DNA from: Escherichia coli
GTDB lineage: Bacteria > Pseudomonadota > Gammaproteobacteria > Enterobacterales > Enterobacteriaceae
NCBI RefSeq assembly: GCF_013122565.1
Contig: NZ_CP053258.1
DNA: 64,000 nt
Direction: 5' to 3' (one strand)
Shown: positions 1 through 40,431 of the stretch, in pieces
Numbering within the stretch: the first letter of the stretch is position 1
Layout of the letters: each line of letters begins with the position of its first letter
The notes under the pieces: generated by a model
Databases searched by the model: none
What the model was told of the DNA's origin: nothing
The model's input: only the letters and a program-made list of their open reading frames with translations
Program-made: the position numbers and the translations under genes

Positions 1-208
1 AGCGCCAGTTGCCATGCTGCGCATACTGCTCGCCAAGCGCATCACTTAACAGTTGTAATCGCTGTTCATTACCATGCTTGATGTAATCAATAAAGCCACG
101 CTCAAAACTGATACGCACCGCCCAGTGCATACTGATCAGCAAGACAATGCAGGTGGCGAAAATCGCCAGAAACAGTTTGCCGGTAATACCGGGTCGCCAG
201 AACTTCAT
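1..208 (-). CDS. baeS: Sensor histidine kinase BaeS, N-terminal 69 codons only (gene continues beyond the window edge)
   Basis: Hand translation of the minus strand from the ATG at 208 gives [39 protein letters not shown]... with no stop down to position 1; start overlaps the mdtD stop by 4 nt. Matches recalled BaeS N-terminus. Confidence 0.8.
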
Positions 209-1620
209 TGCGCGCTCCTTTTTCGCCGCGAAATAGCTACATTTTGATGCGTATCGTTCGGCACTCTGGCAAAGATGAACGCCGGAAGGGCGATGATAAA
301 CGCCATGCTAAGCCAGGTGTACATAAAGACGGTTTGTGTGGTGCCGCTGTCGACGCTGACATGCTGCGAACCAAAAAGTCCCAGCAACAGCCCGGCGATG
401 GTGACGCCGATACTCATCGACAATTGCATAATCATCGACAGCAGACTGTTGCCGCTGCTCGCCAGATTGTCCGGGAGATCTTTCAGCGTCAGGGTGTTCA
501 TGGAGGAGAAACGGGTCGAGTTGACCATCCCTTGTAAAAACAGGACGAACGGCAAAACGTAGTACCAGCCCAACAGAGCGGTAGTCATAAACAACAGGGT
601 GACCAGCGACAGACCCAGCGTGGTCGCTACCAGTACCCGACGATAACCAAAGCGATTCACCACCTGTACAACAATCCGCTTCATCCCCATGCTGCCAAGC
701 ACCATCGGGATCATCATCAGTCCGGCATGAAACGGTGAGAAGCCAAGGCCAATTTGCAGGAAAACCGGCGTCATAAAGGGCAACATGCCGCTACCGATAC
801 GTCCGGCAAAGCTCCCCGCCAGGCCCAGCGAAAAGGTACGAGTGCGGAACAGTTTCAGACTGAAAAGAGCGCGGTTGTTATTTCTGGCGTGCAGCAGATA
901 AAGCACCAGTGCCACCACGCCAACTGCGACCAGGCCAGCAATCGCCAGCGGCGATAAACCTGTACCTTTACTGCCGTCCAGCGCCAGGGTTAATACCGCC
1001 ATGCCAACCGCCAGCAATAAAAATCCGGAGAGATCAAAGCGCCGCGTCTGCATGGTGTAGTTCGGCATTAACATCAGCGTGGCGATCGCGCCGATAATCC
1101 CCACCGGAATGTTGATCAAAAAGATCCAGTGCCAGGAGGCGTATTCCACCAACAGACCGCCGAGCGCCGGACCGAGCAGCGGCCCGACCTGACCGGGTAA
1201 CGTGACAAAGGTCATCGCCGCCATATATTGCTCGCGCGGTACGATTTTCATCACCGTCAACCTGCCGACCGGCACCATCATCGCACCGCCAACACCCTGT
1301 AACGCACGTGCCAGCAACAGTTCGTTCAGCGTGCCGGAAAGCGCGCAAAACAGTGAACCGAGAGTAAACAGCACGATGGCGGTAAAGAAAATATTGCGCA
1401 CGCCGACTTTGTCCGCCAGCCAGCCGCTGGCGGGCAGCATCACCGCCACGGTCAGCACATAAGAGACAATGACCATGTGCATATGCAACGGACTTTCCCC
1501 GAGGCTTTGCGCCATTGAGGGAAGGGCGGTGTTTACGATGGTGGTGTCCAGCGACTGCATAAAGAAGCCGAAAGCCACAATCCACAATTGCCAGCGGGTG
1601 CTGTCGGGAAGATCTGTCAT
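205..1620 (-). CDS. mdtD: MFS-type multidrug efflux transporter MdtD (471 aa)
   Basis: 471-aa ORF in the track, highly hydrophobic multi-TM protein; position directly downstream of mdtC and overlapping baeS as in the known mdtABCD-baeSR operon. Confidence 0.85.
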
Positions 1621-4600
1621 TTACTCGGTTACCGTTTGTTTAGGTTTACGCGAAAAACGCAGCCGCAGACGGTCGAAAAAGAGATACACCACCGGCGTGG
1701 TATACAGCGTCAGGAGCTGACTCATCACCAGACCGCCGACAATGGTGATCCCCAAGGGTTGGCGCAGCTCCGAGCCGTCACCGCCCGACAACACCAGCGG
1801 CAGCGCGCCAAACAGCGCCGCCAGGGTAGTCATCATAATCGGGCGAAAACGCAGCAGACAGGCCTGGAAAATAGCTTCCTGCGGCGTCAGGTTACCGTGC
1901 CGTTGGGCTTCAAGCGCAAAATCGACCATCATAATGGCGTTTTTCTTCACGATGCCGATTAATAGCATGATCCCTATCAGGGCGATTAGGCTGAACGGGG
2001 CATTGAACAGCTCCAGCGCCAGCAGCGCTCCAACGCCCGCCGAGGGCAGGGTGGAGAGAATCGTCAGCGGATGTACGTAACTCTCGTAAAGGATACCCAG
2101 CACGATATACACCGTGGCGATGGCGGCGATAATCAGGATCACCTGCGAGTTCATCGTCTCCTGGAACACCTGCGCCGTGCCGGCAAAACTGCCGCGCACC
2201 GTCGAAGGCACGCCAAGCTGGGTCATTGCGCGGTCGATCGCGGCACTGGCGTCCGAGAGCGATTTCCCGGTCGGCAGGTTGAACGAGATGGTCGAGGCCG
2301 CCGATAATCCCTGATGATTCACCGACAGCGGAGCATTCGCCGGTTGCCATTTAGCGAAATACGACAGCGGGATCGCTTTGCCTTCGTTATTGATAACGAA
2401 CATTTTTTCCAGCGCGCTGATGTCCTGGGTATAGCGCGGATCCACTTCCATCACCACTTTATACTGGTTCATCGGCTGGTAAATGGTCGAGATTTGCCGC
2501 TGACCGAAGGCGTTATTTAACAGGCTGTTGGCGGCCTGTACGTCGATTCCCAGCCGTGCCATGGTGTCGCGATCGTAAACCAGATTCATCTCCGCGCCGT
2601 TATCCTGCTGATCGGAGTTCACGTCCGCCAGTTCCGGCAATGTCGCCAGTTTTTTGCGGATTTTCGGCTCCCATTCGCGCAGTGCCGCCAGGTCGTCGGA
2701 TAACAACGTGTACTGGTAGCTGGCGTTCGACTGACGCCCACCAACGCGAATATCCTGTACCGCCATCAGGAACAGATTCGCCCCCGGTTCTTTCGCCAGT
2801 TTTACGCGCAGACGGTCGATAATTTGCTGCGCTGTTTCGCTGCGTTCGTCGCGTGGCTTGAGGGTGATAAACATCATGCCGCTGTTCACTCGCGAACCGC
2901 CGGTAAATCCGGTGACATTATCCACTGCCGGATCGTCACGGATAATTTTCATGAAATCCTGCAATTTGCCGCGCATTGCCTGAAACGAAATACTCTGATC
3001 CGCCTGTATCCCGCCCATCAGCACGCCGGTGTCTTGTTCCGGGAAGAAGGTCTTCGGGATCGAGATATAGAGCCAGATATTCAAAGCAATGGTGCCAAGC
3101 AGCACCACGCCCACCAGACGGGTATGATTGAGCACCCATTTCAGTGACTTACCATAGCCTTGTTGCAGGGCTACCAACATGCGACCAAAACCACGCAGTC
3201 GCTTTTGCTCGCGCGGCTTGCTGGCTTTCAGCATCCAGCCACACATCATTGGCGTTAATGTCAGAGAAACCAGCAACGAAATACCAATGGCGACAGAAAG
3301 CGTCACGGCAAACTCGCGTAACAGTCGGCCCGGCAATCCGCCCATCAACAGCAGCGGCAGGAACACCGCCACCAGTGACAGACTCATCGACAGCACCGTA
3401 AAGCCGACTTCGCGAGTACCTTGTAGCGCGGCCTGTAGTGGTTTCATCCCCGCTTCCAGATGACGGGCAATGTTTTCCAGCACCACGATGGCGTCATCCA
3501 CCACGAAACCAGTAGCGATGGTGAGCGCCATTAACGACAGGTTATTGAGACTGAATCCGCACAGGTACATCGCCGCAAACGTACCAATCAGCGAAACCGG
3601 CACCGCAACGGCGGGAATAATAGTGGCGCGACCCGAGCGCAGGAATAAAAAGACCACCAGAATCACCAGCGCCACCGAGATAATCAGCGTTTGCTCGACT
3701 TCTTCCAGCGAGGCGCGAATGGTGGGGGAGCGATCCTGAGCAATTTGCAGATCAATCGCCGCCGGAATGGTCTCCTGCAACTCCGGTAATTTTGCCCGGA
3801 TGCTGTCTACCGTCTGGATAATATTGGCTTCCGGCAGTTTGCGGATCATCAGCAAAATAGCCGGTTTGGCGTTGGTCATCCCGGCGTTGCGCACATCCTG
3901 CACTGAGTCGGTTACCGTTGCCACATCGCCCAGACGAACCGCACCACCATTGTTGTAGTGAATAATCAGCGGCTGATATTCAGCGGCGGTTTTCAGTTCA
4001 TCGTTGGTCTGGATCTGCCAGCGGTGAATGCCATCTTCCAGCGCCCCCTGTGGTTTACGTACGTTGGCATTGCTGATGGCAGTGCGTACGTCGTCCAGCG
4101 ACACGCCCTGATTAAACAGTGCTTGCGGGTTCAGCCCGACGCGCACCGCAGGCAGCGAGCTGCCGCCGACATCGACATCACCGACGCCGTCGATTTGAGA
4201 AATCGTCGGAGCCAGCTGCGTCGAGGCAAAATCGTACAGTTCACCTTGCGAATAAGTATCGGACGTCAGCGTGAGGATCATAATTGGCGCATCCGACGGG
4301 TTCGCTTTGCGATAGGTCGGACGGCTGGGCATCCCGCTGGGCAGCAAACTTTGTGCAGCGTTGATCGCCGCCTGCACATCGCGCGCTGCGCCGTTGATAT
4401 CGCGGTCAAAATCAAACTGCAAAATAATGCGCGTGCTGCCGAGCGAACTGCTGGAGGTCATTTCACTGACCCCGGCAATGCGCCCAAGTGATCGCTCCAG
4501 CGGCGTGGCAACGGAAGACGCCATTGTTTCTGGTGACGCACCGGGCAGCGAGGCGCTGACCATAATCACTGGAAAATCGACCTGCGGCAGCGGGGCGACC

Positions 4601-4698
4601 GGCAGCATACGGAAACCCAGTATGCCGCACAGGGTAATGGCGACCGACAGTAAAATCGTTGCCACCGGGCGGTAAATGAAGAGGGCAAAAAACTTCAC
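1621..4698 (-). CDS. mdtC: RND multidrug efflux pump subunit MdtC (1025 aa)
   Basis: 1025-aa ORF with RND/AcrB-like architecture (12 TM, two large periplasmic loops); start abuts mdtB stop; paralogous to the upstream 1040-aa ORF. Confidence 0.9.
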
Positions 4699-7600
4699 TT
4701 ACGCCTCCTCTTCATGACGGGCAAAGCGACTTTTGGTCCACAATGCCAGGCGGTCGAACAGCAGATAAATCACCGGCGTGGTGAACAGCGTCAGCACCTG
4801 GCTGACAATCAGACCGCCGACCATGCCGATACCTAACGGACGACGCAGTTCCGCGCCGACCCCGGTACTCAACATCAGCGGCAGCGCGCCAAGCAGAGCC
4901 GCCAGGGTGGTCATCAGGATCGGACGAAAACGCAACAGACAAGCCTGGTAGATTGCATCGCGCGGCGACATGCCTTGCTCGCGCTCAGCAGCCAGCGCGA
5001 AGTCGATCATCATGATGGCGTTCTTCTTCACGATACCGATCAGCAAAATAATGCCGATAATCGCAATCACATCCAGTTCGCTACCGGCAATCATTAACGC
5101 CAGCAGTGCGCCAACACCTGCCGTGGGTAGCGTCGAGAGAATGGTGATCGGGTGAATAAAGCTCTCGTACAGAATGCCGAGCACGATATACATCGCCACC
5201 ACCGCCGCGACAATCAGCCAGACGGTGCTGCCCAGCGCCGACTGGAAGGCGAGGGTGCTGCCCTGGAACTGCGTGGTGATATCCACCGGCAGATTCAGAG
5301 TCTTTTCGGTGTCCATAATCGCCTGCACCGCATCGCCCAGCGAATAGTTATCCGGCACGTTAAAGGAGATGGTCGTTACCGGGAACTGATCCAGATGGTT
5401 GATGGAAAGCGGCGCAAAACGCTGCTCAATTTTGGCAATTGAGCTTAACGGCACCACGCCACCGTCGCTGCTGGTCAGGCGAATGGTATCCAGCGCCGCG
5501 AGGCCTGGGGTATTTTCGGTGTTGTGCTCCAGCACCACGCGATACTGGTTAGCCTGAGTATAAATAGTGGAAATCAGCCGCTGACCAAACGCGTTGTACA
5601 GGGCGTTATCGACGTCCGCCATGCTGATCCCCAGACGGCTGGCGCTGTCGCGATCAACATTGACATACGCCACCAGCCCTTTGTCCTGCCAGTCGCTGGA
5701 GACATCAGATAGCTGTGGCAGCTGCTGGAGTTTTTCCATCAACTGTGGCACCCAGGTACTGAGCGCATCCAGTGACGTGGCCTGCAAGGTAAACTGGTAC
5801 TGGGTGCGGCTGACCTGAGTATCGATGGTCAGGTCCTGCGTTGGTTGCAGGAAGAGATCGACGCCCGGCACTTTATCCACCGCCGTTTGCAGACGGGCGA
5901 TGACTTTTTGCACCCGATCATCACGTTCATCCAGCGGTTTGAGGTTGATCTGCAAACGCGCACTGTTCAGCGACGGGTTAGTGCCATCAACGCCAACAAA
6001 TGAGGTCAGACTTTGCACTGCCGGATCCTGCAAAATCACGTCCGCGACCTGGCGTTGCCGCTGGGCCATATTGGCAAAGGAGCTGGATTGCGGTGCCTGC
6101 AAAGTGCCCTGAATAATGCCGTTATCCTGTACCGGGAAGAAACCTTTCGGAATGAACACCCACAATAGAACGCTAAGCAGCAGCGTGCTGAGCGCCACGC
6201 TTAAGGTCAGCCACGGATGATTCAGCACTTTCGCAAGTCCCTGACCATAGGCGGCGATTATCCTGTCGAACATTTTTTCCGAGGCACGGGAGAAGCGGTT
6301 CTGTTTACGCAGTGACTCCTGGCTGAGCATCCGCGCGCACATCATCGGTGTCAGGGTCAGCGACACCACGGCTGAGATCAAAATCGCTACCGCCAGGGTA
6401 ATAGCAAATTCGCGGAACAGTCGCCCGACGATATCGCCCATAAACAGCAGTGGGATCAACACCGCAATCAGCGAGAAGGTCAGCGAGATAATGGTAAAGC
6501 CGATTTCACCCGCGCCTTTGAGCGCCGCCGCCAACGGTTTTTCGCCTTTTTCGATATAGCGGGAAATGTTTTCGATCACCACGATGGCGTCATCGACCAC
6601 AAATCCGGTGGCGATAGTTAACGCCATCAGCGTCAGGTTATTGATTGAAAAATCGAGAAACACCATGACCGCGAAGGTGCCGATTAACGACAGCGGCACT
6701 GCGACGCCGGGAATGATGGTCGCCGGAATATTGCGCAAAAACAGGTAGATAATCATGACTACCAGCGCGATAGCCATCATCAATTCAAACTGAGTATCAT
6801 CGACGGATGCGCGGATATTGGTGGTACGGTCAGAAAGTACCGTCACCTTCACCGATTTCGGCAGACTCTCGGTGAGCTGTGGCAGCATCTGCCGGATGCT
6901 GTCGGCGGTGGAGATAATGTTAGCACCGGGCTGGCGCTGAACATTCATCACAATGGCCTGTTCTTTGTTCGCCCATGCGCCGAGCCAGCTGTTTTCTGCA
7001 CCTTGCTCTACGGTTGCGACATCGCCCAGACGAATCGGCGCGCCGTTCTGGTAGGCGATGATTAGCTGGCGATACTCTTCGGCGGATTGCATCTGGTCGT
7101 TAGCGGAAAGCGTAACCGCACGGGAAGGGCCGTCAAGGCTACCTTTAGCCGAGTTAACGTTAGCGCCGGTAATGGCGGTGCGCACGGTTTCGCTGGTCAG
7201 GCCGAGGGCGGCAATCGCCTGAGCGTTAAGTTTGACGCGAACAGCCGGACGCTGGCCGCCGGAAAGCGTCACCAGACCGACGCCGGAAATCTGCGAGATT
7301 TTCTGCGCGACGCGGGTTTCCACCATATCTTCCACTTGCGTCATCGGCATGGCTGTTGAGGTGACGGCGAGCGTCATGATCGGCGGATCTGCCGGGTTCA
7401 CTTTGCTGTAAACCGGCGGGTTAGGCAGATCGCTCGGCAACAAGTTGGTCGCAGCGTTAATCGCGGCCTGTACTTCCTGCTCGGCGACATCCAGCGGTAA
7501 TGTTAGCTGGAACTGCAAAGTGATAACTGACGCACCGCCGGAACTTTGCGACGACATCTGTTTCAGACCAGACATCTGCCCGAACTGGCGTTCGAGCGGC

Positions 7601-7821
7601 GCGGTAACGGCAGAGGTCATGACATCCGGGCTCGCACCTGGGTAGAGCGTGACCACCTGAATGGTCGGATAGTCCACTTCCGGCAGCGCCGAAACGGGCA
7701 GGGCGCGATAACCGATAATCCCGGCGAGTAAGATCGCCACCATCAGCAGCGTGGTGGCCACAGGACGCATAATAAACAGGCGCGACGGGCCGCCTGTGCT
7801 GCTCGGGGGTAACACCTGCAT
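4699..7821 (-). CDS. mdtB: RND multidrug efflux pump subunit MdtB (1040 aa)
   Basis: 1040-aa RND-family ORF; its ATG overlaps the mdtA stop codon by 1 nt (TGATG), indicating translational coupling. Confidence 0.9.
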
Positions 7822-9068
7822 CAGGAGCGTGCTCCTTTTTTCGCGTATTCGCGGCTGGTGGCTTTCTCTTCCGAAGTGGTGGCGCTCTGGGCTTCCACCA
7901 CTTCCACTTTCGCCCCTTCGGTCAGGCGATCAATGCCGTCTGTCACCACGCGATCGCCCGCAGAAATACCTGCGCGGATCACCACTTTCTGACTGTCCTG
8001 AATGCCCGGCGTCACCAGATGTTTGCTGACCTTGTTTTCGCTATTCAGCACCCAGACAAAATGGCCTTCATTGCCCATTTGCAGGGCGGCTGTTGGGATC
8101 ACCACGGCGTTTTGTTCGGTGTCGACTAACATACGCGCGTTAACAAACTGATTGGGAAACAGCGCATCATCCTGATTATTAAAGCGTGCTTTCACTTTAA
8201 TCGTACCGGTAGTGGCATCGATTTGGTTATCGAGACTTAACAGCGTGCCTTCACTTAATTTCTTCGAGTTGGTGCGATCCCAGGCTTCTACCACCAGCGG
8301 TTTTCCGGTTTTTTGCGCCTGCACAACGGTAGCGATATCGCTTTCCGGCAGGGTAAAGACTAAATCGATAGGATGCGTCTGGGTGATCACCACAATCCCG
8401 GAGGTATCACCACTGGAGATTTGGTTACCAACATCAACCTGCTTGAGACCAACGCGACCATCGACTGGTGCGGTGATGCGGCTCCAGTCGAGTTGCAGCT
8501 GTGCGCTGGCGACGCTTGCTTCATCAGCCTTAATGGTGCCTTCGGTTTCACTGACCAGCGCCTGTTGGGCATCCAGTTCCTGACGAGATACGAGATTGGT
8601 TTTTGCCAGTTGTTGATAACGCGCCAGGTCACGGCGGGCGTTGGCGAGCGTGGCTTTATCTTTTGCCAGTTGGCCCTGGGCTTGTGCTAATGCAACTTTG
8701 AACTGGCTTGGGTCAATTTCTGCCAGTAAATCGCCTGCTTTGACCTGCTGGCCTTCCTGGAAATGTAACGCCATCAGTTGACCGTCCACGCGGCTGCGCA
8801 CCGTAACAGTATTAGCGGCGGTAATGGTGCCAAGCCCGGTGAGGTAACGCGGAACAGCCTGTTCTACTGCGGTCGCCGCCTGAACCGGAGCTAATGGGCC
8901 GGCACGCATACCACGGCGACCACCCGCTGGCGATTGCTGCGCTTGTTTCGTCGCCCCAGGGGCTGCACTCTGGGAGTCATTGCGGCCTTGCCAGAACCAG
9001 AATGCGGCGATGGCGGCGATAACCACCACGATTACGATTACCCAACGGGATTTATAACTGCCTTTCAT
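7821..9068 (-). CDS. mdtA: Membrane fusion protein (periplasmic adaptor) MdtA, 415 aa
   Basis: Track ORF 7821..9215 is 464 aa; I place the start at the internal ATG at 9068 ([16 protein letters not shown]...), which gives the expected 415 aa with a signal/TM N-terminus. The 49 upstream codons are probably not translated. Confidence 0.8.
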
Positions 9069-9121: not shown

Positions 9122-9139
9122 GCCAATAAGGGAGAAAAA
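9122..9139 (-). promoter_or_regulatory. Putative BaeR response-regulator binding box upstream of mdtA
   Basis: Plus strand reads GCCAATAAGGGAGAAAAA; its reverse complement TTTTTCTCCCTTATTGGC matches the recalled BaeR consensus TTTTTCTCCATDATTGGC with one mismatch. Located about 55-70 nt upstream of the mdtA start. Confidence 0.55.
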
Positions 9140-9276: not shown

Positions 9277-9420
9277 GACGATTTCAGCGGGACGCTGAAA
9301 CGGGAAAGCCCCTATAAGGAAAGGGTCATGATGAAGTGGATCATCATCGTGGTGCTCTTAGTCATAAGCTTCCCGGCTTACTAAGACTACCAGGGCGGGG
9401 GAAACCCCGCTCTACCCTCA
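9277..9420 (-). ncRNA. sib: Sib-family antisense sRNA (antitoxin) overlapping ibs copy 1; boundaries approximate
   Basis: Minus-strand sigma70-like promoter: TTGACA (plus 9450..9455 reverse-complemented), 17-nt spacer, TAATTT; the transcript would run antisense across the whole ibs ORF. Length set to about 140 nt by analogy with the known SibA/SibB RNAs. Confidence 0.6.
9328..9384 (+). CDS. ibs: Ibs-family type I toxin peptide, 18 aa (MMKWIIIVVLLVISFPAY)
   Basis: ATGATGAAG... ORF preceded by AAGGAAAGGG Shine-Dalgarno; hydrophobic peptide with the Ibs family signature MMK...VISFPAY. Confidence 0.8.
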   Translation: MMKWIIIVVLLVISFPAY

Positions 9421-9594
9421 CTCCTGAAATTATGCCTTCACGATAAGATTGTCAATCCGCAGGCTTTGTAGTCTGCGATCCTGCCAGCAAATATTCTTTG
9501 CGAGTCGTTACGCAATAATCACACTGGAAACTATTTTATCCGCAAGTCAGCGATAGACTGCATACAGGGCGAAAGGAGGTAAGCCGACGATTTC

Positions 9595-9738
9595 AGCGGG
9601 ACGCTGAAACGGGAAAGCCCCTCCCGAGGAAGGGGCCTTAAATAAGGAAAGGGTCATGATGAAGATACTCATCATCGTGGTGCTCTTAGTGATTAGCTAC
9701 CCAGCATACTAAGACTACCAGGGCGGGGGAAACCCCGC
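9595..9738 (-). ncRNA. sib: Sib-family antisense sRNA overlapping ibs copy 2; boundaries approximate
   Basis: Same minus-strand TTGACA/TAATTT promoter arrangement (TGTCAA at plus 9768..9773) as in copy 1. Confidence 0.6.
9656..9712 (+). CDS. ibs: Ibs-family type I toxin peptide, 18 aa (MMKILIIVVLLVISYPAY)
   Basis: Second repeat unit; same SD spacing and peptide architecture as copy 1. Confidence 0.8.
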   Translation: MMKILIIVVLLVISYPAY

Positions 9739-9939
9739 TCTACCCTCACTCCTGAAATTATGCCTTCACGATAAGATTGTCAATCCGCAGGCTTTGTAGT
9801 CTGCGATCCTGCCAGCAAATATTCTTTGCGAGTCGTTACGCAATAATCACAGAGGAAACTATTTTGTTCACGCGTTAGCGATAGACTGCATTCAGGGCGA
9901 AAGGAGGTAAGCCGACGATTTCAGCGGGATGCTGAAACG

Positions 9940-10083
9940 GGAAACCCTCTCCCGGAGAAGAGGGCTTTTAATAAGGAAAGGGTTATGATGAAGCACGTCA
10001 TCATACTGGTGATACTCTTAGTGATTAGCTTCCAGGCTTACTAAGAACACCAGGGGGAGGGGGAAACCTCTCCCTAACCCTCA
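9940..10083 (-). ncRNA. sib: Sib-family antisense sRNA overlapping ibs copy 3; boundaries approximate
   Basis: Minus-strand promoter with TTGACA (plus 10113..10118 reverse-complemented) and TAATTT after a 17-nt spacer. Confidence 0.55.
9985..10044 (+). CDS. ibs: Ibs-family type I toxin peptide, 19 aa (MMKHVIILVILLVISFQAY)
   Basis: Third repeat unit; ORF one codon longer than the other two and ending FQAY instead of FPAY. Confidence 0.8.
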   Translation: MMKHVIILVILLVISFQAY

Positions 10084-10264
10084 CTCCTGAAATTATGTCA
10101 CTCCGCCCTTAGTGTCAATCGACGGCTCTCCGTTCTTGCGAGGCGAATAGCAAAATTTTCTGCGCCGCCGGGCCTAATTCTGAAAGTTTCTTCGTTTGCT
10201 CTTATTTCATTATTGCAATCGGTATGATACCGGACCTCGATAATTCTCTAAGAAAGGATTTCTT

Positions 10265-36324: not shown

Positions 36325-37290
36325 ATGAGTAAACAACGCATTTTTATTGCTGGCCATCGCGGGATGGTCGGTTCCGCCATCAGGCGGCAGCTCGAACAGC
36401 GCGGTGATGTGGAGCTGGTATTACGCACCCGCGATGAACTGAACCTGCTGGACAGCCGCGCGGTGCATGATTTCTTTGCCAGCGAAAGCATTGACCAGGT
36501 CTATCTGGCGGCGGCGAAAGTGGGCGGCATTGTTGCCAACAACACGTATCCGGCGGATTTCATCTATCAGAACATGATGATTGAGAGCAACATCATTCAC
36601 GCCGCGCATCAGAACGACGTGAACAAACTGCTGTTTCTCGGATCGTCCTGTATCTACCCCAAACTGGCAAAACAGCCGATGGCAGAAAGCGAGTTATTGC
36701 AGGGCACGCTGGAGCCGACCAACGAGCCTTACGCCATTGCCAAAATCGCCGGGATCAAACTGTGCGAATCTTACAACCGCCAGTATGGACGCGATTACCG
36801 CTCAGTCATGCCGACCAACCTGTATGGCCCGCATGACAACTTCCACCCGAGTAATTCGCATGTGATCCCTGCATTGCTGCGTCGCTTCCACGAGGCGACG
36901 GCACAGAATGCGCCGGACGTGGTGGTATGGGGCAGCGGTACACCGATGCGTGAATTCCTGCACGTCGATGATATGGCGGCGGCCAGCATTCACGTGATGG
37001 AGCTGGCGCACGAAGTCTGGCTGGAGAACACCCAGCCGATGCTGTCGCATATTAACGTCGGTACCGGTGTTGACTGCACTATCCGCGAGCTGGCGCAAAC
37101 CATCGCCAAAGTGGTGGGTTACAAAGGTCGGGTGGTTTTTGATGCCAGTAAACCGGATGGTACGCCGCGCAAACTGCTGGATGTGACGCGCCTGCATCAG
37201 CTTGGCTGGTATCACGAAATCTCACTGGAAGCGGGGCTTGCCAGCACTTACCAGTGGTTCCTTGAGAATCAAGACCGCTTTCGGGGGTAA
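36325..37290 (+). CDS. fcl: GDP-L-fucose synthase Fcl (WcaG), 321 aa
   Basis: 321-aa ORF beginning [23 protein letters not shown]...; immediately downstream of gmd. Confidence 0.95.
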
Positions 37291-37772
37291 TGATGTTTTT
37301 ACGTCAGGAAGACTTTGCCACGGTAGTGCGCTCCACACCGCTTGTCTCTCTCGACTTTATTGTCGAGAACAGTCGCGGCGAGTTTCTGCTTGGCAAAAGA
37401 ACCAACCGCCCGGCGCAGGGTTACTGGTTTGTGCCGGGAGGGCGCGTGCAGAAAGACGAAACGCTGGAAGCCGCATTTGAGCGGCTGACGATGGCGGAAC
37501 TGGGGCTGCGTCTGCCGATAACAGCAGGCCAGTTTTACGGTGTCTGGCAGCACTTTTATGACGATAACTTCTCCGGCAAGGATTTCACCACTCACTATGT
37601 GGTGCTCGGTTTTCGCTTCAGAGTCGCTGAAGAAGAGCTGTTACTGCCGGATGAGCAGCATGACGATTACCGCTGGCTGACGCCGGACGCACTGCTCGCC
37701 AGTGACAATGTTCACGCTAACAGCCGCGCCTATTTTCTCGCTGAGAAGCGTGCCGGAGTACCCGGATTATGA
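37290..37772 (+). CDS. gmm: GDP-mannose mannosyl hydrolase Gmm (WcaH/NudD), Nudix family (160 aa)
   Basis: 160-aa ORF with a Nudix-like region; overlaps the fcl stop and the wcaI start. Confidence 0.85.
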
Positions 37773-38992
37773 AAATACTGGTCTACGGCATTAACTACTC
37801 GCCGGAGTTAACCGGCATCGGCAAATACACCGGCGAGATGGTGGAATGGCTGGCGGCACAAGGTCATGAGGTGCGGGTCATTACCGCACCGCCTTACTAC
37901 CCGCAGTGGCAGGTGGGCGAGAACTATTCCGCCTGGCGGTACAAACGAGAAGAGGGGGCCGCTACGGTGTGGCGCTGCCCGCTGTACGTGCCAAAACAGC
38001 CGAGCACCCTGAAACGCCTGTTGCATCTCGGCAGTTTTGCCGTCAGCAGTTTTTTCCCGTTGATGGCGCAACGTCGCTGGAAGCCGGATCGTATTATCGG
38101 CGTGGTGCCAACGCTGTTTTGCACGCCGGGAATGCGCCTGCTGGCGAAACTCTCTGGTGCGCGTACCGTGCTGCATATTCAGGATTACGAAGTGGACGCC
38201 ATGCTGGGGCTGGGCCTTGCCGGAAAAGGCAAAGGCGGCAAAGTGGCACAGCTGGCAACGGCGTTCGAACGTAGCGGACTGCATAACGTCGATAACGTCT
38301 CCACGATTTCGCGTTCGATGATGAATAAAGCCATCGAAAAAGGCGTGGTGGCGGAAAACGTCATCTTCTTCCCCAACTGGTCGGAAATTGCCCGTTTTCA
38401 GCATGTTGCAGATGCCGATGTTGATGCCCTTCGTAACCAGCTTGGCCTGCCGGATAACAAAAAAATCATTCTTTACTCCGGCAATATTGGTGAAAAGCAG
38501 GGGCTGGAAAACGTTATTGAAGCTGCCGATCGCCTGCGCGATGAACCGCTGATTTTTGCCATTGTCGGGCAGGGCGGCGGCAAAGCGCGGCTGGAAAAAA
38601 TGGCGCAACAGCGTGGTCTGCGCAACATGCAATTTTTTCCGCTGCAATCGTATGACGCTTTACCCGCACTGCTGAAGATGGGCGATTGCCATCTGGTGGT
38701 GCAAAAACGCGGCGCGGCAGATGCCGTATTGCCGTCGAAACTGACCAATATTCTGGCGGTAGGCGGTAACGCGGTGATTACCGCAGAGGCCCACACAGAA
38801 CTGGGACAGCTTTGCGAAACCTTTCCGGGCATTGCGGTTTGCGTTGAACCAGAATCGGTCGAGGCGCTGGTGGCGGGGATCCGTCAGGCGCTCCTGCTGC
38901 CCAAACACAACACGGTGGCACGTGAATATGCCGAACGCACGCTCGATAAAGAGAACGTGTTACGTCAATTTATAAATGATATTCGGGGATAA
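37769..38992 (+). CDS. wcaI: Colanic acid glycosyltransferase WcaI (407 aa)
   Basis: 407-aa GT1-like ORF beginning [24 protein letters not shown]... Confidence 0.85.
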
Positions 38993-38994
38993 TT

Positions 38995-40431
38995 ATGGCG
39001 CAGTCGAAACTCTATCCAGTTGTGATGGCAGGTGGCTCCGGTAGCCGCTTATGGCCGCTTTCCCGCGTACTTTACCCCAAGCAGTTTTTATGCCTGAAAG
39101 GCGATCTCACCATGCTGCAAACCACCATCTGCCGCCTGAACGGCGTGGAGTGCGAAAGCCCGGTGGTGATTTGCAATGAGCAGCACCGCTTTATTGTCGC
39201 GGAACAGCTGCGCCAACTGAACAAACTCACCGAGAACATTATTCTCGAACCAGCAGGGCGTAACACTGCACCAGCCATTGCGCTGGCGGCGCTGGCGGCA
39301 AAACGTCATAGCCCGGAGAGCGACCCGTTAATGCTGGTATTGGCGGCGGATCATGTGATTGCCGATGAAGACGCGTTCCGTGCCGCCGTGCGTAATGCCA
39401 TGCCATATGCCGAAGCGGGCAAGCTGGTGACCTTCGGCATTGTGCCGGATCTACCAGAAACCGGTTATGGCTATATTCGTCGCGGTGAAGTATCTGCGGG
39501 CGAGCAGGATACGGTGGCCTTTGAAGTGGCGCAGTTTGTCGAAAAACCGAATCTGGAAACCGCCCAGGCCTATGTGGCAAGTGGCGAATATTACTGGAAC
39601 AGCGGCATGTTCCTGTTCCGCGCCGGACGCTATCTCGAAGAACTGAAAAAATATCGCCCGGATATTCTCGATGCCTGTGAAAAAGCGATGAGCGCCGTCG
39701 ATCCGGATCTTGATTTTATTCGTGTGGATGAAGAAGCGTTTCTCGCCTGCCCGGAAGAGTCGGTGGATTACGCGGTCATGGAACGTACGGCAGATGCCGT
39801 TGTGGTGCCGATGGATGCGGGCTGGAGCGATGTCGGTTCCTGGTCTTCATTATGGGAGATCAGCGCCCACACCGCCGAGGGCAACGTTTGCCATGGCGAT
39901 GTGATTAATCACAAAACTGAAAACAGCTATGTGTACGCCGAATCTGGCCTGGTCACCACCGTCGGGGTGAAAGATCTGGTGGTGGTGCAGACCAAAGATG
40001 CGGTGCTGATTGCCGACCGCAACGCGGTGCAGGATGTGAAAAAAGTGGTCGAGCAGATCAAAGCCGATGGTCGCCATGAGCATCGGGTGCATCGCGAAGT
40101 CTATCGCCCGTGGGGCAAATATGACTCTATCGACGCGGGCGACCGCTACCAGGTGAAACGCATCACCGTGAAACCGGGCGAGGGTTTGTCGGTACAGATG
40201 CACCATCACCGCGCGGAACACTGGGTGGTGGTTGCGGGAACGGCAAAAGTCACCATTGACGGTGATATCAAACTGCTTGGTGAAAACGAGTCCATTTATA
40301 TTCCGCTGGGGGCGACGCACTGCCTGGAAAACCCGGGGAAAATTCCGCTCGATTTAATTGAAGTGCGCTCCGGCTCTTATCTCGAAGAGGATGATGTGGT
40401 GCGCTTCGCGGATCGCTACGGACGGGTGTAG
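38995..40431 (+). CDS. cpsB: Mannose-1-phosphate guanylyltransferase CpsB (ManC), 478 aa
   Basis: 478-aa ORF beginning [24 protein letters not shown]... with a C-terminal cupin/isomerase-like domain. Confidence 0.9.

Follow-up and report, generated by a model that had tools for sequence, protein, structure and literature searches.

The window, i.e., the whole 64,000-nt stretch of Escherichia coli DNA analysed here (contig NZ_CP053258.1 of assembly GCF_013122565.1), has at one end a familiar locus, the mdtABCD-baeSR operon activated by BaeR, with the compact arrangement usual for it. According to both the sequence read and the ORF list, mdtA, mdtB, mdtC, mdtD, and baeS follow one another in this order on one strand (−), adjoining or overlapping at all four junctions; the greater part of baeS, and all of baeR, falls beyond the window's edge. 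That the operon is a known one had already been said in a sequence-only reading of the same DNA, with which the gene models, the gene order, and the BaeR box agree. The features, listed from the promoter end, are the following:

9122..9139, minus strand: BaeR box TTTTTCTCCCTTATTGGC upstream of mdtA, in the operon promoter region, with 1 mismatch to the consensus TTTTTCTCCATDATTGGC
7821..9068, minus strand: mdtA CDS, periplasmic adaptor, 415 aa, ATG at 9068, stop TGA 7823-7821; NCBIfam NF008589 MdtA/MuxA equivalog, 723.6 bits
7823..7836, minus strand: Shine-Dalgarno motif (SD) of mdtB, GGAG at 7835-7832 (position −14), within the last mdtA codons, with a small predicted hairpin
7819..7823, minus strand: mdtA/mdtB junction TGATG, 1-nt overlap (−1), mdtB ATG 7821-7819
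4699..7821, minus strand: mdtB CDS, RND permease, 1040 aa, stop TAA 4701-4699; NF007798 MdtB/MuxB equivalog, 2244 bits, aligned over 1-1039 of 1040
4673..4714, minus strand: predicted hairpin over the mdtC SD, the mdtB stop, and the mdtC GTG, with SD GAAGAGGAGG at 4713-4704 and 3' arm CCCTCTTC at 4685-4678 (mdtC codons 5-7)
4696..4701, minus strand: mdtB/mdtC junction TAAGTG, 0 spacer, mdtC GTG 4698-4696
1621..4698, minus strand: mdtC CDS, RND permease, 1025 aa, GTG start, stop TAA 1623-1621; NF007905 MdtC equivalog, 2210.9 bits, aligned over 1-1024 of 1025
1618..1623, minus strand: mdtC/mdtD junction TAAATG, 0 spacer, without an upstream SD, mdtD ATG 1620-1618
205..1620, minus strand: mdtD (iceT) CDS, MFS transporter, 471 aa, stop TGA 207-205; NF007799 MdtD, 969.3 bits, aligned over 1-471 of 471
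215..218, minus strand: SD of baeS, GGAG (in AAGGAG), within the last mdtD codons
205..208, minus strand: mdtD/baeS junction ATGA, 4-nt overlap (−4), baeS ATG 208-206
1..208, minus strand: 5' part of baeS, truncated by the window edge after 69 codons; NF007837 BaeS equivalog, aligned over 1-69 of 466

We consider the start-codon calls to be correct because the NCBIfam equivalog models align from the N-terminal end: the profile alignments begin at position 1 for MdtB, MdtC, MdtD, and BaeS and at position 3 for MdtA, the scores being above the equivalog/subfamily cut-offs for all four complete genes. The same start positions were recovered in 72-82 orthologs. The distances of −1, 0, 0, and −4 (mdtA/mdtB, mdtB/mdtC, mdtC/mdtD, and mdtD/baeS, respectively) given by the sequence-only reading are exact to the base on the minus strand, and its main point, that there is no intergenic spacer anywhere from mdtA to baeS, is true but already tabulated for K-12. 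Indeed, the exact mdt/bae distances can be found in a published supplement (Huber 2023); the exact spacings, the operon, and the general principle are all already known and published. The same annotation is carried by this region in E. coli O157, and in the annotated E. coli genome nearest to this one, baeS runs on to overlap baeR by 4 nt; according to the literature, a single transcription unit under BaeR autoregulation gives a long transcript with baeSR at its end. The BaeR box, compared with the consensus of Nishino 2005 as quoted in PMC3799227, is the sole match in the 64 kb, where 0.02 would be expected by chance. An Rfam search returned no known RNA family within the operon, its sole matches being three Sib RNAs upstream.

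One has to ask how unusual such a layout is. Of 2,987 co-directional pairs in E. coli, 707 (24%) are at a distance of −8 to +6 according to published figures; in the window, with the operon excluded, 13 of the 31 same-strand junctions fall in that range and 8 of the 31 are at 0 or below. The window even holds another tight run of four junctions, gmd-fcl-gmm-wcaI-cpsB (+2, +2, −4, and +2), and about 10 runs of four junctions at −8 to +6 are expected per genome, an estimate that assumes independence and takes its marginal frequencies from the literature and from genes of the window. Since tight junctions are this common, four consecutive ones at 0 or below represent the tight end of a normal distribution and no anomaly. 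The abundance of the −4 spacing in particular probably reflects its ease of evolution, as argued in a review; tight spacing is both common and easily evolved, and the layout is an ordinary one that permits linked translation without proving it.

Conservation of the spacing says more. Our comparison sample consisted of 80 Enterobacteriaceae loci, with denominators varying from 72 to 80 depending on the junction. The mdtA/mdtB distance is −1 in all 72 orthologs and the mdtB/mdtC distance 0 in 72 of 76, while among 80 orthologs the mdtD/baeS distance is −4 in 54, −1 in 19, and +2 or +3 in 7 (i.e., −4 or −1 in 73/80). The mdtC/mdtD spacing, in contrast, ranges from −4 to +56 with 11 different values across the loci; it stays within −4 to +4 in 75/80 orthologs and reaches +20 to +56 in some genera. 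Because the geometry is, thus, free to change at this junction, its invariance at the others is meaningful. From the aligned sequences, three of the four junctions are nearly invariant across Enterobacteriaceae, and so are the positions of their SD motifs. For mdtC, 47 orthologs start with GTG and 29 with ATG, for which reason the idea that a GTG start halves MdtC output to set the B2C ratio was rejected.

An SD is found inside the upstream coding sequence for mdtB, mdtC, and baeS and is absent for mdtD. The core is GGAG for mdtB (at −14, 72/73 orthologs) and baeS (at −10, 78/80) and GAGG for mdtC (at −12, 73/77); these cores are fixed in position though the neighbouring codons vary. Not a single one of the 80 orthologs has GGAG upstream of the mdtD start. 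By predicted duplex energy, the mdtC SD (−12.0 kcal/mol) is among the strongest of the window, the baeS SD reaches −7.9 with an opening energy of 6.8 kcal/mol and is predicted to be accessible, and mdtD has only −3.0 kcal/mol. Strong SDs could serve independent initiation equally well, a point to be kept in mind against coupling. As for synonymous variability, the last 10 codons of mdtD are at the 4th percentile and the 3' end of baeS is below the 1st, whereas mdtC codons 1-11 show an unremarkable constraint (about the 21st percentile); windows of low synonymous entropy at mdtD codons 302-397 have equally extreme counterparts in mdtB and mdtC.

Structure prediction singles out the mdtB/mdtC junction, the fold analysis giving no notable structure at the three others. 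The hairpin over the mdtC SD and start has a fold z-score of −2.36, with 4 of 200 shuffles equally stable, and 87% of its cells are paired in 67 orthologs vs. 50-68% in slid controls. The alignment of these 67 orthologs holds 0 compensatory (double) changes, so that this conservation is one of invariance only, and z-scores from +0.5 to −2.0 in 12 other genera are unconvincing. The opening energy of the mdtC start is 17.6 kcal/mol, the second-highest of 46 genes (window median 7.4), and the ortholog median is 16.6 vs. 6.6-10.6 for the starts of the other four genes; on these models, strong occlusion of the mdtC start region is predicted. At mdtA/mdtB, a hairpin AGGAG-CACG-CUCCU ending at the TGATG junction is present in both the MFE and centroid folds, and a 3' arm permitting 4 bp (CTCC or TTCC) is found in 49/73 orthologs, but the z-score of the 80-nt fold is only −0.53 and not significant.

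Translational coupling is plausible at this operon and probably uneven among the junctions; we infer both its occurrence and its strength at each of them. In E. coli, coupling is most efficient at distances of −4 to +3 (Brown & Wade 2025), and changing a spacing from −4 to +3 cut it about 30-fold (Liljestrom 1988, as cited in Brown & Wade 2025). The four distances also fall within the −8 to +10 nt or so between stop and start that marks co-directional pairs of the termination-reinitiation class. Our preferred reading, to which we give a probability of about 0.6, is that translation of the downstream cistrons comes largely from ribosomes passed on by the cistron before, with a dependence that probably differs by junction. 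Such a hand-over is the most likely explanation because each downstream start lies within the footprint of the ribosome terminating upstream; it could proceed by termination-reinitiation, by ribosome-driven unfolding of the start region, or by both. For mdtB and mdtC, the conserved SDs embedded in the upstream coding sequence would be used, and mdtC is probably the most dependent of all, since, with mdtB untranslated, its start region is predicted to be sequestered in base pairs. Having no SD, mdtD would probably rely on reinitiation, while the strong and accessible SD of baeS probably also allows initiation of its own. The sequence-only reading had suggested coupling along the whole operon: this is supported insofar as the spacings (−4 to 0) are in the efficient range and three junctions are near-invariant with SDs, but it is too uniform a statement given the drift of mdtC/mdtD to +20 to +56. 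The same reading had the sensor kinase coupled to its own target. A baeS deletion is reportedly complemented by a plasmid in which baeS is preceded by no more than 500 bp of mdtD; this, together with the strong and accessible baeS SD, makes a strict dependence of the kinase on mdtD translation doubtful, and co-transcription and BaeR autoregulation already account for the kinase-target link. Our literature search found no coupling experiment on the mdt/bae operon and no paper on mdtB/mdtC coupling or on an internal baeS promoter.

It is also conceivable, though we hold it for somewhat unlikely, that there is no functional coupling at all: each gene would be initiated de novo at its own SD, the tight spacers would be a by-product of compaction and of the easy origin of NTGA and TGATG, and conservation would reflect selection on the SD-start distance and on the protein ends. 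The strong conserved SDs before mdtB, mdtC, and baeS fit this well, as do the accessible start of baeS and its function from a fragment with 500 bp upstream, the ease with which −4 spacings probably evolve, and the free drift at mdtC/mdtD. There is also a precedent in bioBF, which is not coupled and is initiated de novo despite its 4-nt overlap (Huber 2019). In that same study, however, 4 of 5 native E. coli pairs with a 4-nt overlap were coupled, the SD mattering in 4 of 5. A ribosome terminating at a distance of 0 or −1 covers the next start, so that full independence is impossible there, and the mdtC start is predicted to be poorly accessible alone. Then there is mdtD, SD-less in all 80 orthologs and yet at −4 to +4 in 75 of them, which is hard to explain without hand-over.

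Alternatively, only the tight mdtA-mdtB-mdtC junctions would matter, serving the subunit ratio and the co-translational assembly of MdtA with MdtB2C, with the mdtD and baeS junctions incidental. Subunits of heteromeric complexes are overrepresented 4.5-fold among tight pairs of E. coli, MdtB and MdtC assemble as a B2C heteromultimer, and mdtA/mdtB and mdtB/mdtC are the two invariant junctions. Still, a 2:1 ratio would not follow from one-to-one hand-over alone, a tuning device would be expected to keep its start codon, which mdtC does not (GTG in 47, ATG in 29), and mdtD/baeS is also strongly conserved although no MdtD-BaeS complex is known; we find this reading unlikely. Very unlikely, in our opinion, is a mainly transcriptional benefit, by which the lack of untranslated gaps over about 11 kb would deny Rho a loading site and ensure that the distal baeSR are reliably transcribed from the mdtA promoter, securing the autoregulatory loop: Rho-loading polarity on untranslated RNA is established and baeSR do come last on their long autoregulated transcript, but Rho would not load on spacers of only 10-30 nt anyway, so that zero spacing is not needed against it, the rise of baeS on BaeR amplification is only about 10-fold, no sign of perfectly uniform read-through, and both the fixed SD positions and the occluded mdtC start are left unexplained. 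As regards internal promoters, which bear on this last reading in its favour, no sigma-70-like one was seen on the minus strand of the operon, overall counts being equal to chance; a simple consensus scan of mdtD for a baeSR promoter gave none on the coding strand, again with counts equal to chance.

Coming back to ribosome hand-over, a stronger version of it can be put forward tentatively, with the odds against it: MdtC synthesis would be strictly gated by translation of MdtB through the conserved pairing of a very strong SD and the start at the zero-spacer junction, enforcing an ordered co-translational assembly of the MdtB2C heterotrimer, and the accessible SD of baeS would free it from coupling and provide a basal supply of kinase independent of the pump. 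The finding itself has little weight beyond good annotation. If coupling were shown, it would help to explain the concerted production of the subunits in a heteromeric RND pump, as well as how an autoregulated two-component system encoded at the end of an 11-kb transcript obtains its share of translation. The contrasts between junctions (occluded mdtC start, SD-less mdtD, accessible baeS SD) would, as modelled, offer specific and cheap hypotheses for work on BaeSR/MdtABC expression.

The closest known system is the K-12 mdtABCD-baeSR operon itself (b2074-b2079), with which our locus agrees in gene order, in having orthologs of all five genes, and in its BaeR box upstream of mdtA; the distances tabulated for K-12 (−1, 0, 0, and −4) match those of the window, baeS/baeR being also at −4 in K-12. 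The window differs from that system in carrying three Sib/Ibs copies upstream of mdtA, and its identity to the best match among 5,426 complete E. coli genomes is only about 98%. The coupled pairs of Huber 2019/2023 (hyfHI, astDB, ydbH-ynbE, as well as menDH) are, like mdt/bae, co-directional, spaced at −4 to +1, and provided with an SD in the upstream gene, a short local sequence being sufficient for coupling in the Huber pairs; they were, however, tested with premature-stop reporters, whereas coupling in mdt/bae is a predicted one and mdtD has no SD. Coupling by RNA unfolding, as in phage f1 genes VII/IX or rpmI-rplT (Brown & Wade 2025), may likewise have a counterpart in the mdtC SD and start, which lie in a predicted hairpin that could be opened by a ribosome finishing mdtB. 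Compared with these examples, the mdtC structure is a predicted one, without covariation and with weak z-scores in other genera. We take the gene pair in which the change of spacing cut coupling so sharply to be ompR-envZ (ompB). With its ATGA overlap, ompR-envZ is a precedent for coupling across a −4 junction in a two-component operon; there, the kinase follows its own regulator, whereas in mdt/bae it comes after a transporter gene and before the regulator.

The sequence-only reading had noted that no intergenic spacer separates the genes from mdtA to baeS, and this proved exact when the minus strand was read directly, the ORF list being in agreement: every junction from mdtA through mdtB, mdtC and mdtD to baeS overlaps or abuts. 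The five genes are placed as follows, from direct sequence reading and the ORF list:

mdtA, minus strand, ATG at 9068, stop TGA at 7823-7821
mdtB, minus strand, ATG at 7821, stop TAA at 4701-4699
mdtC, minus strand, GTG at 4698, stop TAA at 1623-1621
mdtD, minus strand, ATG at 1620, stop TGA at 207-205
baeS, minus strand, ATG at 208, 69 codons followed by the window edge

The mdtA/mdtB junction reads TGATG, with 1 base in common; mdtB/mdtC (TAAGTG) and mdtC/mdtD (TAAATG) both have a spacer of 0; mdtD/baeS (ATGA) has 4 bases in common. NCBIfam equivalog or subfamily models match MdtB, MdtC, MdtD and BaeS from profile position 1, the match to MdtA beginning at profile position 3, and identical start positions were recovered in 72-82 orthologous loci; alignment from the beginning of the profiles and recovery in orthologs thus exclude an ORF-calling artefact for the starts.

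Such spacing is real, and falls within the ordinary range, towards its tight extreme. In E. coli, 707 of 2,987 co-directional pairs (24%) are spaced at -8 to +6, the commonest tight spacings being -4 and -1 (Huber et al. 2023). Within the window, with the mdt/bae operon excluded, 8/31 same-strand junctions are at or below 0 and 13/31 fall at -8 to +6. The colanic-acid genes gmd-fcl-gmm-wcaI-cpsB form a second tight run of four junctions (+2, +2, -4, +2), an in-window control indicating that such runs are ordinary:

fcl-gmm-wcaI-cpsB, 36325-40431, with gmd upstream, control run of tight junctions

If junctions were independent at 24% each, about 10 runs of four tight junctions would be expected per genome, and clustering inside operons raises the true number further.

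We sought all five genes in each of 80 loci, one genome per species, from Enterobacteriaceae genera (MdtD identity 80-98%). The mdtA/mdtB spacing is -1 in 72/72 orthologs (TGATG in 70, TAATG in 2) and the mdtB/mdtC spacing 0 in 72/76, while mdtD/baeS takes -4 in 54 of 80, -1 in 19 and +2 or +3 in 7. The mdtC/mdtD junction, by contrast, shows 11 states from -4 to +56; this drift serves as an internal control showing that the geometry is free to change over this phylogeny, so it is constraint that keeps the others unchanged. Of the 72 complete loci, 44 have every one of the four spacings at or below 0, and 67 have them all at or below 4. A few genera have an mdtC/mdtD spacer of +20 to +56 nt (loci L077, L079, L080, L032 and L004), and in L077, L079 and L080 the enlarged spacer carries an SD-like GAGG/GGTGA stretch ahead of the mdtD ATG, as if a gained ribosome-binding site offset the lost abutment. 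Erwinia amylovora reportedly lacks mdtD.

Shine-Dalgarno (SD) motifs are conserved before three of the genes, namely GGAG at -14 of mdtB (72/73 orthologs), GAGG at -12 of mdtC (73/77) and GGAG at -10 of baeS (78/80), with core positions unchanged even where neighbouring codons vary; GGAG was found before mdtD in 0/80. Synonymous variability is low at the mdtD 3' end (4th percentile) and lowest of all at the baeS 3' end, adjoining baeR. There, beyond the window, the last ~20 baeS codons (loci L002-L081) are under stronger synonymous-site constraint than any other part of the gene, with a normalised entropy of 0.22-0.30 vs a mean of 0.64. In E. coli this end shares 4 nt with baeR, and the constraint suggests that a translation initiation region for baeR is embedded here. 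Codons 2-11 of mdtA (9038-9065) show by far the lowest variability in that gene (0.20 vs a mean of 0.67, 70 orthologs), which could reflect start-region structure, a signal/lipoprotein sequence or regulation. Three of the lowest-variability windows of mdtD lie at codons 302-397 (~433-717), 250-510 nt upstream of baeS, within a 500-bp fragment used as the "native baeS promoter" in a 2026 paper; mdtB and mdtC have minima at least as extreme, and a scan for a sigma-70 consensus gave no hit here on the coding strand.

Two energies were calculated for 46 window genes: that of the SD-anti-SD duplex, and that required to open positions -18 to +6 (window median of the latter 7.4 kcal/mol).

Predicted start-region energies in kcal/mol (SD duplex; opening; ortholog median of opening)
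mdtA: -3.8; 8.7; 6.6
mdtB: -7.9; 9.1; 10.6
mdtC: -12.0; 17.6; 16.6
mdtD: -3.0; 8.35; 7.9
baeS: -7.9; 6.8; 8.7

The mdtC opening energy is the second highest of the 46. In the predicted mdtC hairpin, GAAGAGGAGG pairs with CCCUCUUC of mdtC codons 5-7, and both the stop and the start codon lie between the two arms. The fold has a z-score of -2.36, and 87% of cells are paired across 67 orthologs vs 50-68% in slid controls. No compensatory changes occur among these 67 orthologs, z-scores in 12 other genera run from +0.5 to -2.0, and synonymous constraint at the mdtC start is unremarkable; support for this modelled hairpin is limited. The AGGAG-CACG-CUCCU hairpin predicted ahead of mdtB is not a significant fold, and its 3' arm is kept in just 49/73 orthologs. 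A predicted poorly accessible start region is common to mdtC and to other downstream genes of overlapping pairs: pphC (10921; yegL/pphC -4; 20.1 kcal/mol, the highest of the 46), wcaL (46385; wcaK/wcaL -4; 15.7 kcal/mol, with a very strong SD of -12.3) and wcaD (32636; 26-nt overlap; 14.8 kcal/mol).

The operon geometry is that of the termination-reinitiation class. Coupling efficiency in E. coli peaks at -4 to +3 nt (Brown & Wade 2025, review), and spacers of ~20 nt nearly abolish coupling; ribosome hand-over and ribosome-driven RNA unfolding are two non-exclusive models for it. With premature-stop reporters, 4/5 native E. coli pairs with a 4-nt overlap were coupled, bioBF being uncoupled, and the SD was of importance in 4/5 tested overlap pairs (Huber 2019). 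A literature search apparently yields no published test of downstream translation after upstream premature termination for the mdt/bae genes. The layout would let ribosomes move on from cistron to cistron; mdtC, with its predicted occluded start, and mdtD, without an SD, would depend most on the upstream gene, mdtB to an intermediate degree and baeS least. On BaeR amplification baeS goes up just ~10-fold, which fits baeS as the least dependent gene, as does the reported complementation of a baeS deletion by a plasmid with no more than 500 bp of sequence upstream of baeS. A tentative reading, at a probability of roughly 0.3, is that MdtC synthesis depends strictly on translation of MdtB, with baeS escaping coupling. 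As for the link between kinase and target, for which coupling along the whole operon had been suggested, co-transcription and BaeR autoregulation, both from the literature, already explain it. That each cistron initiates independently, compaction being a by-product, is doubtful; that the tight junctions serve to set subunit ratios in the MdtB2C pump, or to help it assemble, is unlikely. Avoidance of Rho polarity is an improbable role for them. None of these three would render the layout unusual.

Past the baeS-to-mdtA genes, the window continues with yegL-pphC-yegI, dgcE, asmA, the colanic acid cluster, an O3-type O-antigen cluster and gnd. Three tandem Sib antitoxin RNA copies (Rfam RF00113, 141-150 bits) lie between mdtA and yegL:

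Sib RNAs, 9313-9455, 9641-9783 and 9970-10118, minus strand, same strand as mdtA (Rfam RF00113)

They match type I toxin-antitoxin repeats (Ibs/Sib) in the annotation of E. coli O157, whereas just ibsA and ibsB are listed at this site for K-12. Against 5,426 complete E. coli genomes, all three window segments searched reach at best only ~97.6-98.0% identity, which points to an E. coli-like lineage without a close representative among them.

Both gene content and a BaeR box at 9122-9139 (1 mismatch to the published consensus, with no second copy in the window) place the genes in mdtABCD-baeSR, for which the literature reports a single transcript. In E. coli O157:H7, the same region is annotated baeR-baeS-mdtD-mdtC-mdtB-mdtA, with a 4-nt overlap also at baeS/baeR, and the supplement of Huber 2023 gives, for K-12, spacings of -1 (mdtA/B), 0 (mdtB/C), 0 (mdtC/D), -4 (mdtD/baeS) and -4 (baeS/baeR). 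The genes belong to mdtABCD-baeSR, a known operon, and their spacer-free layout has already been tabulated for K-12.
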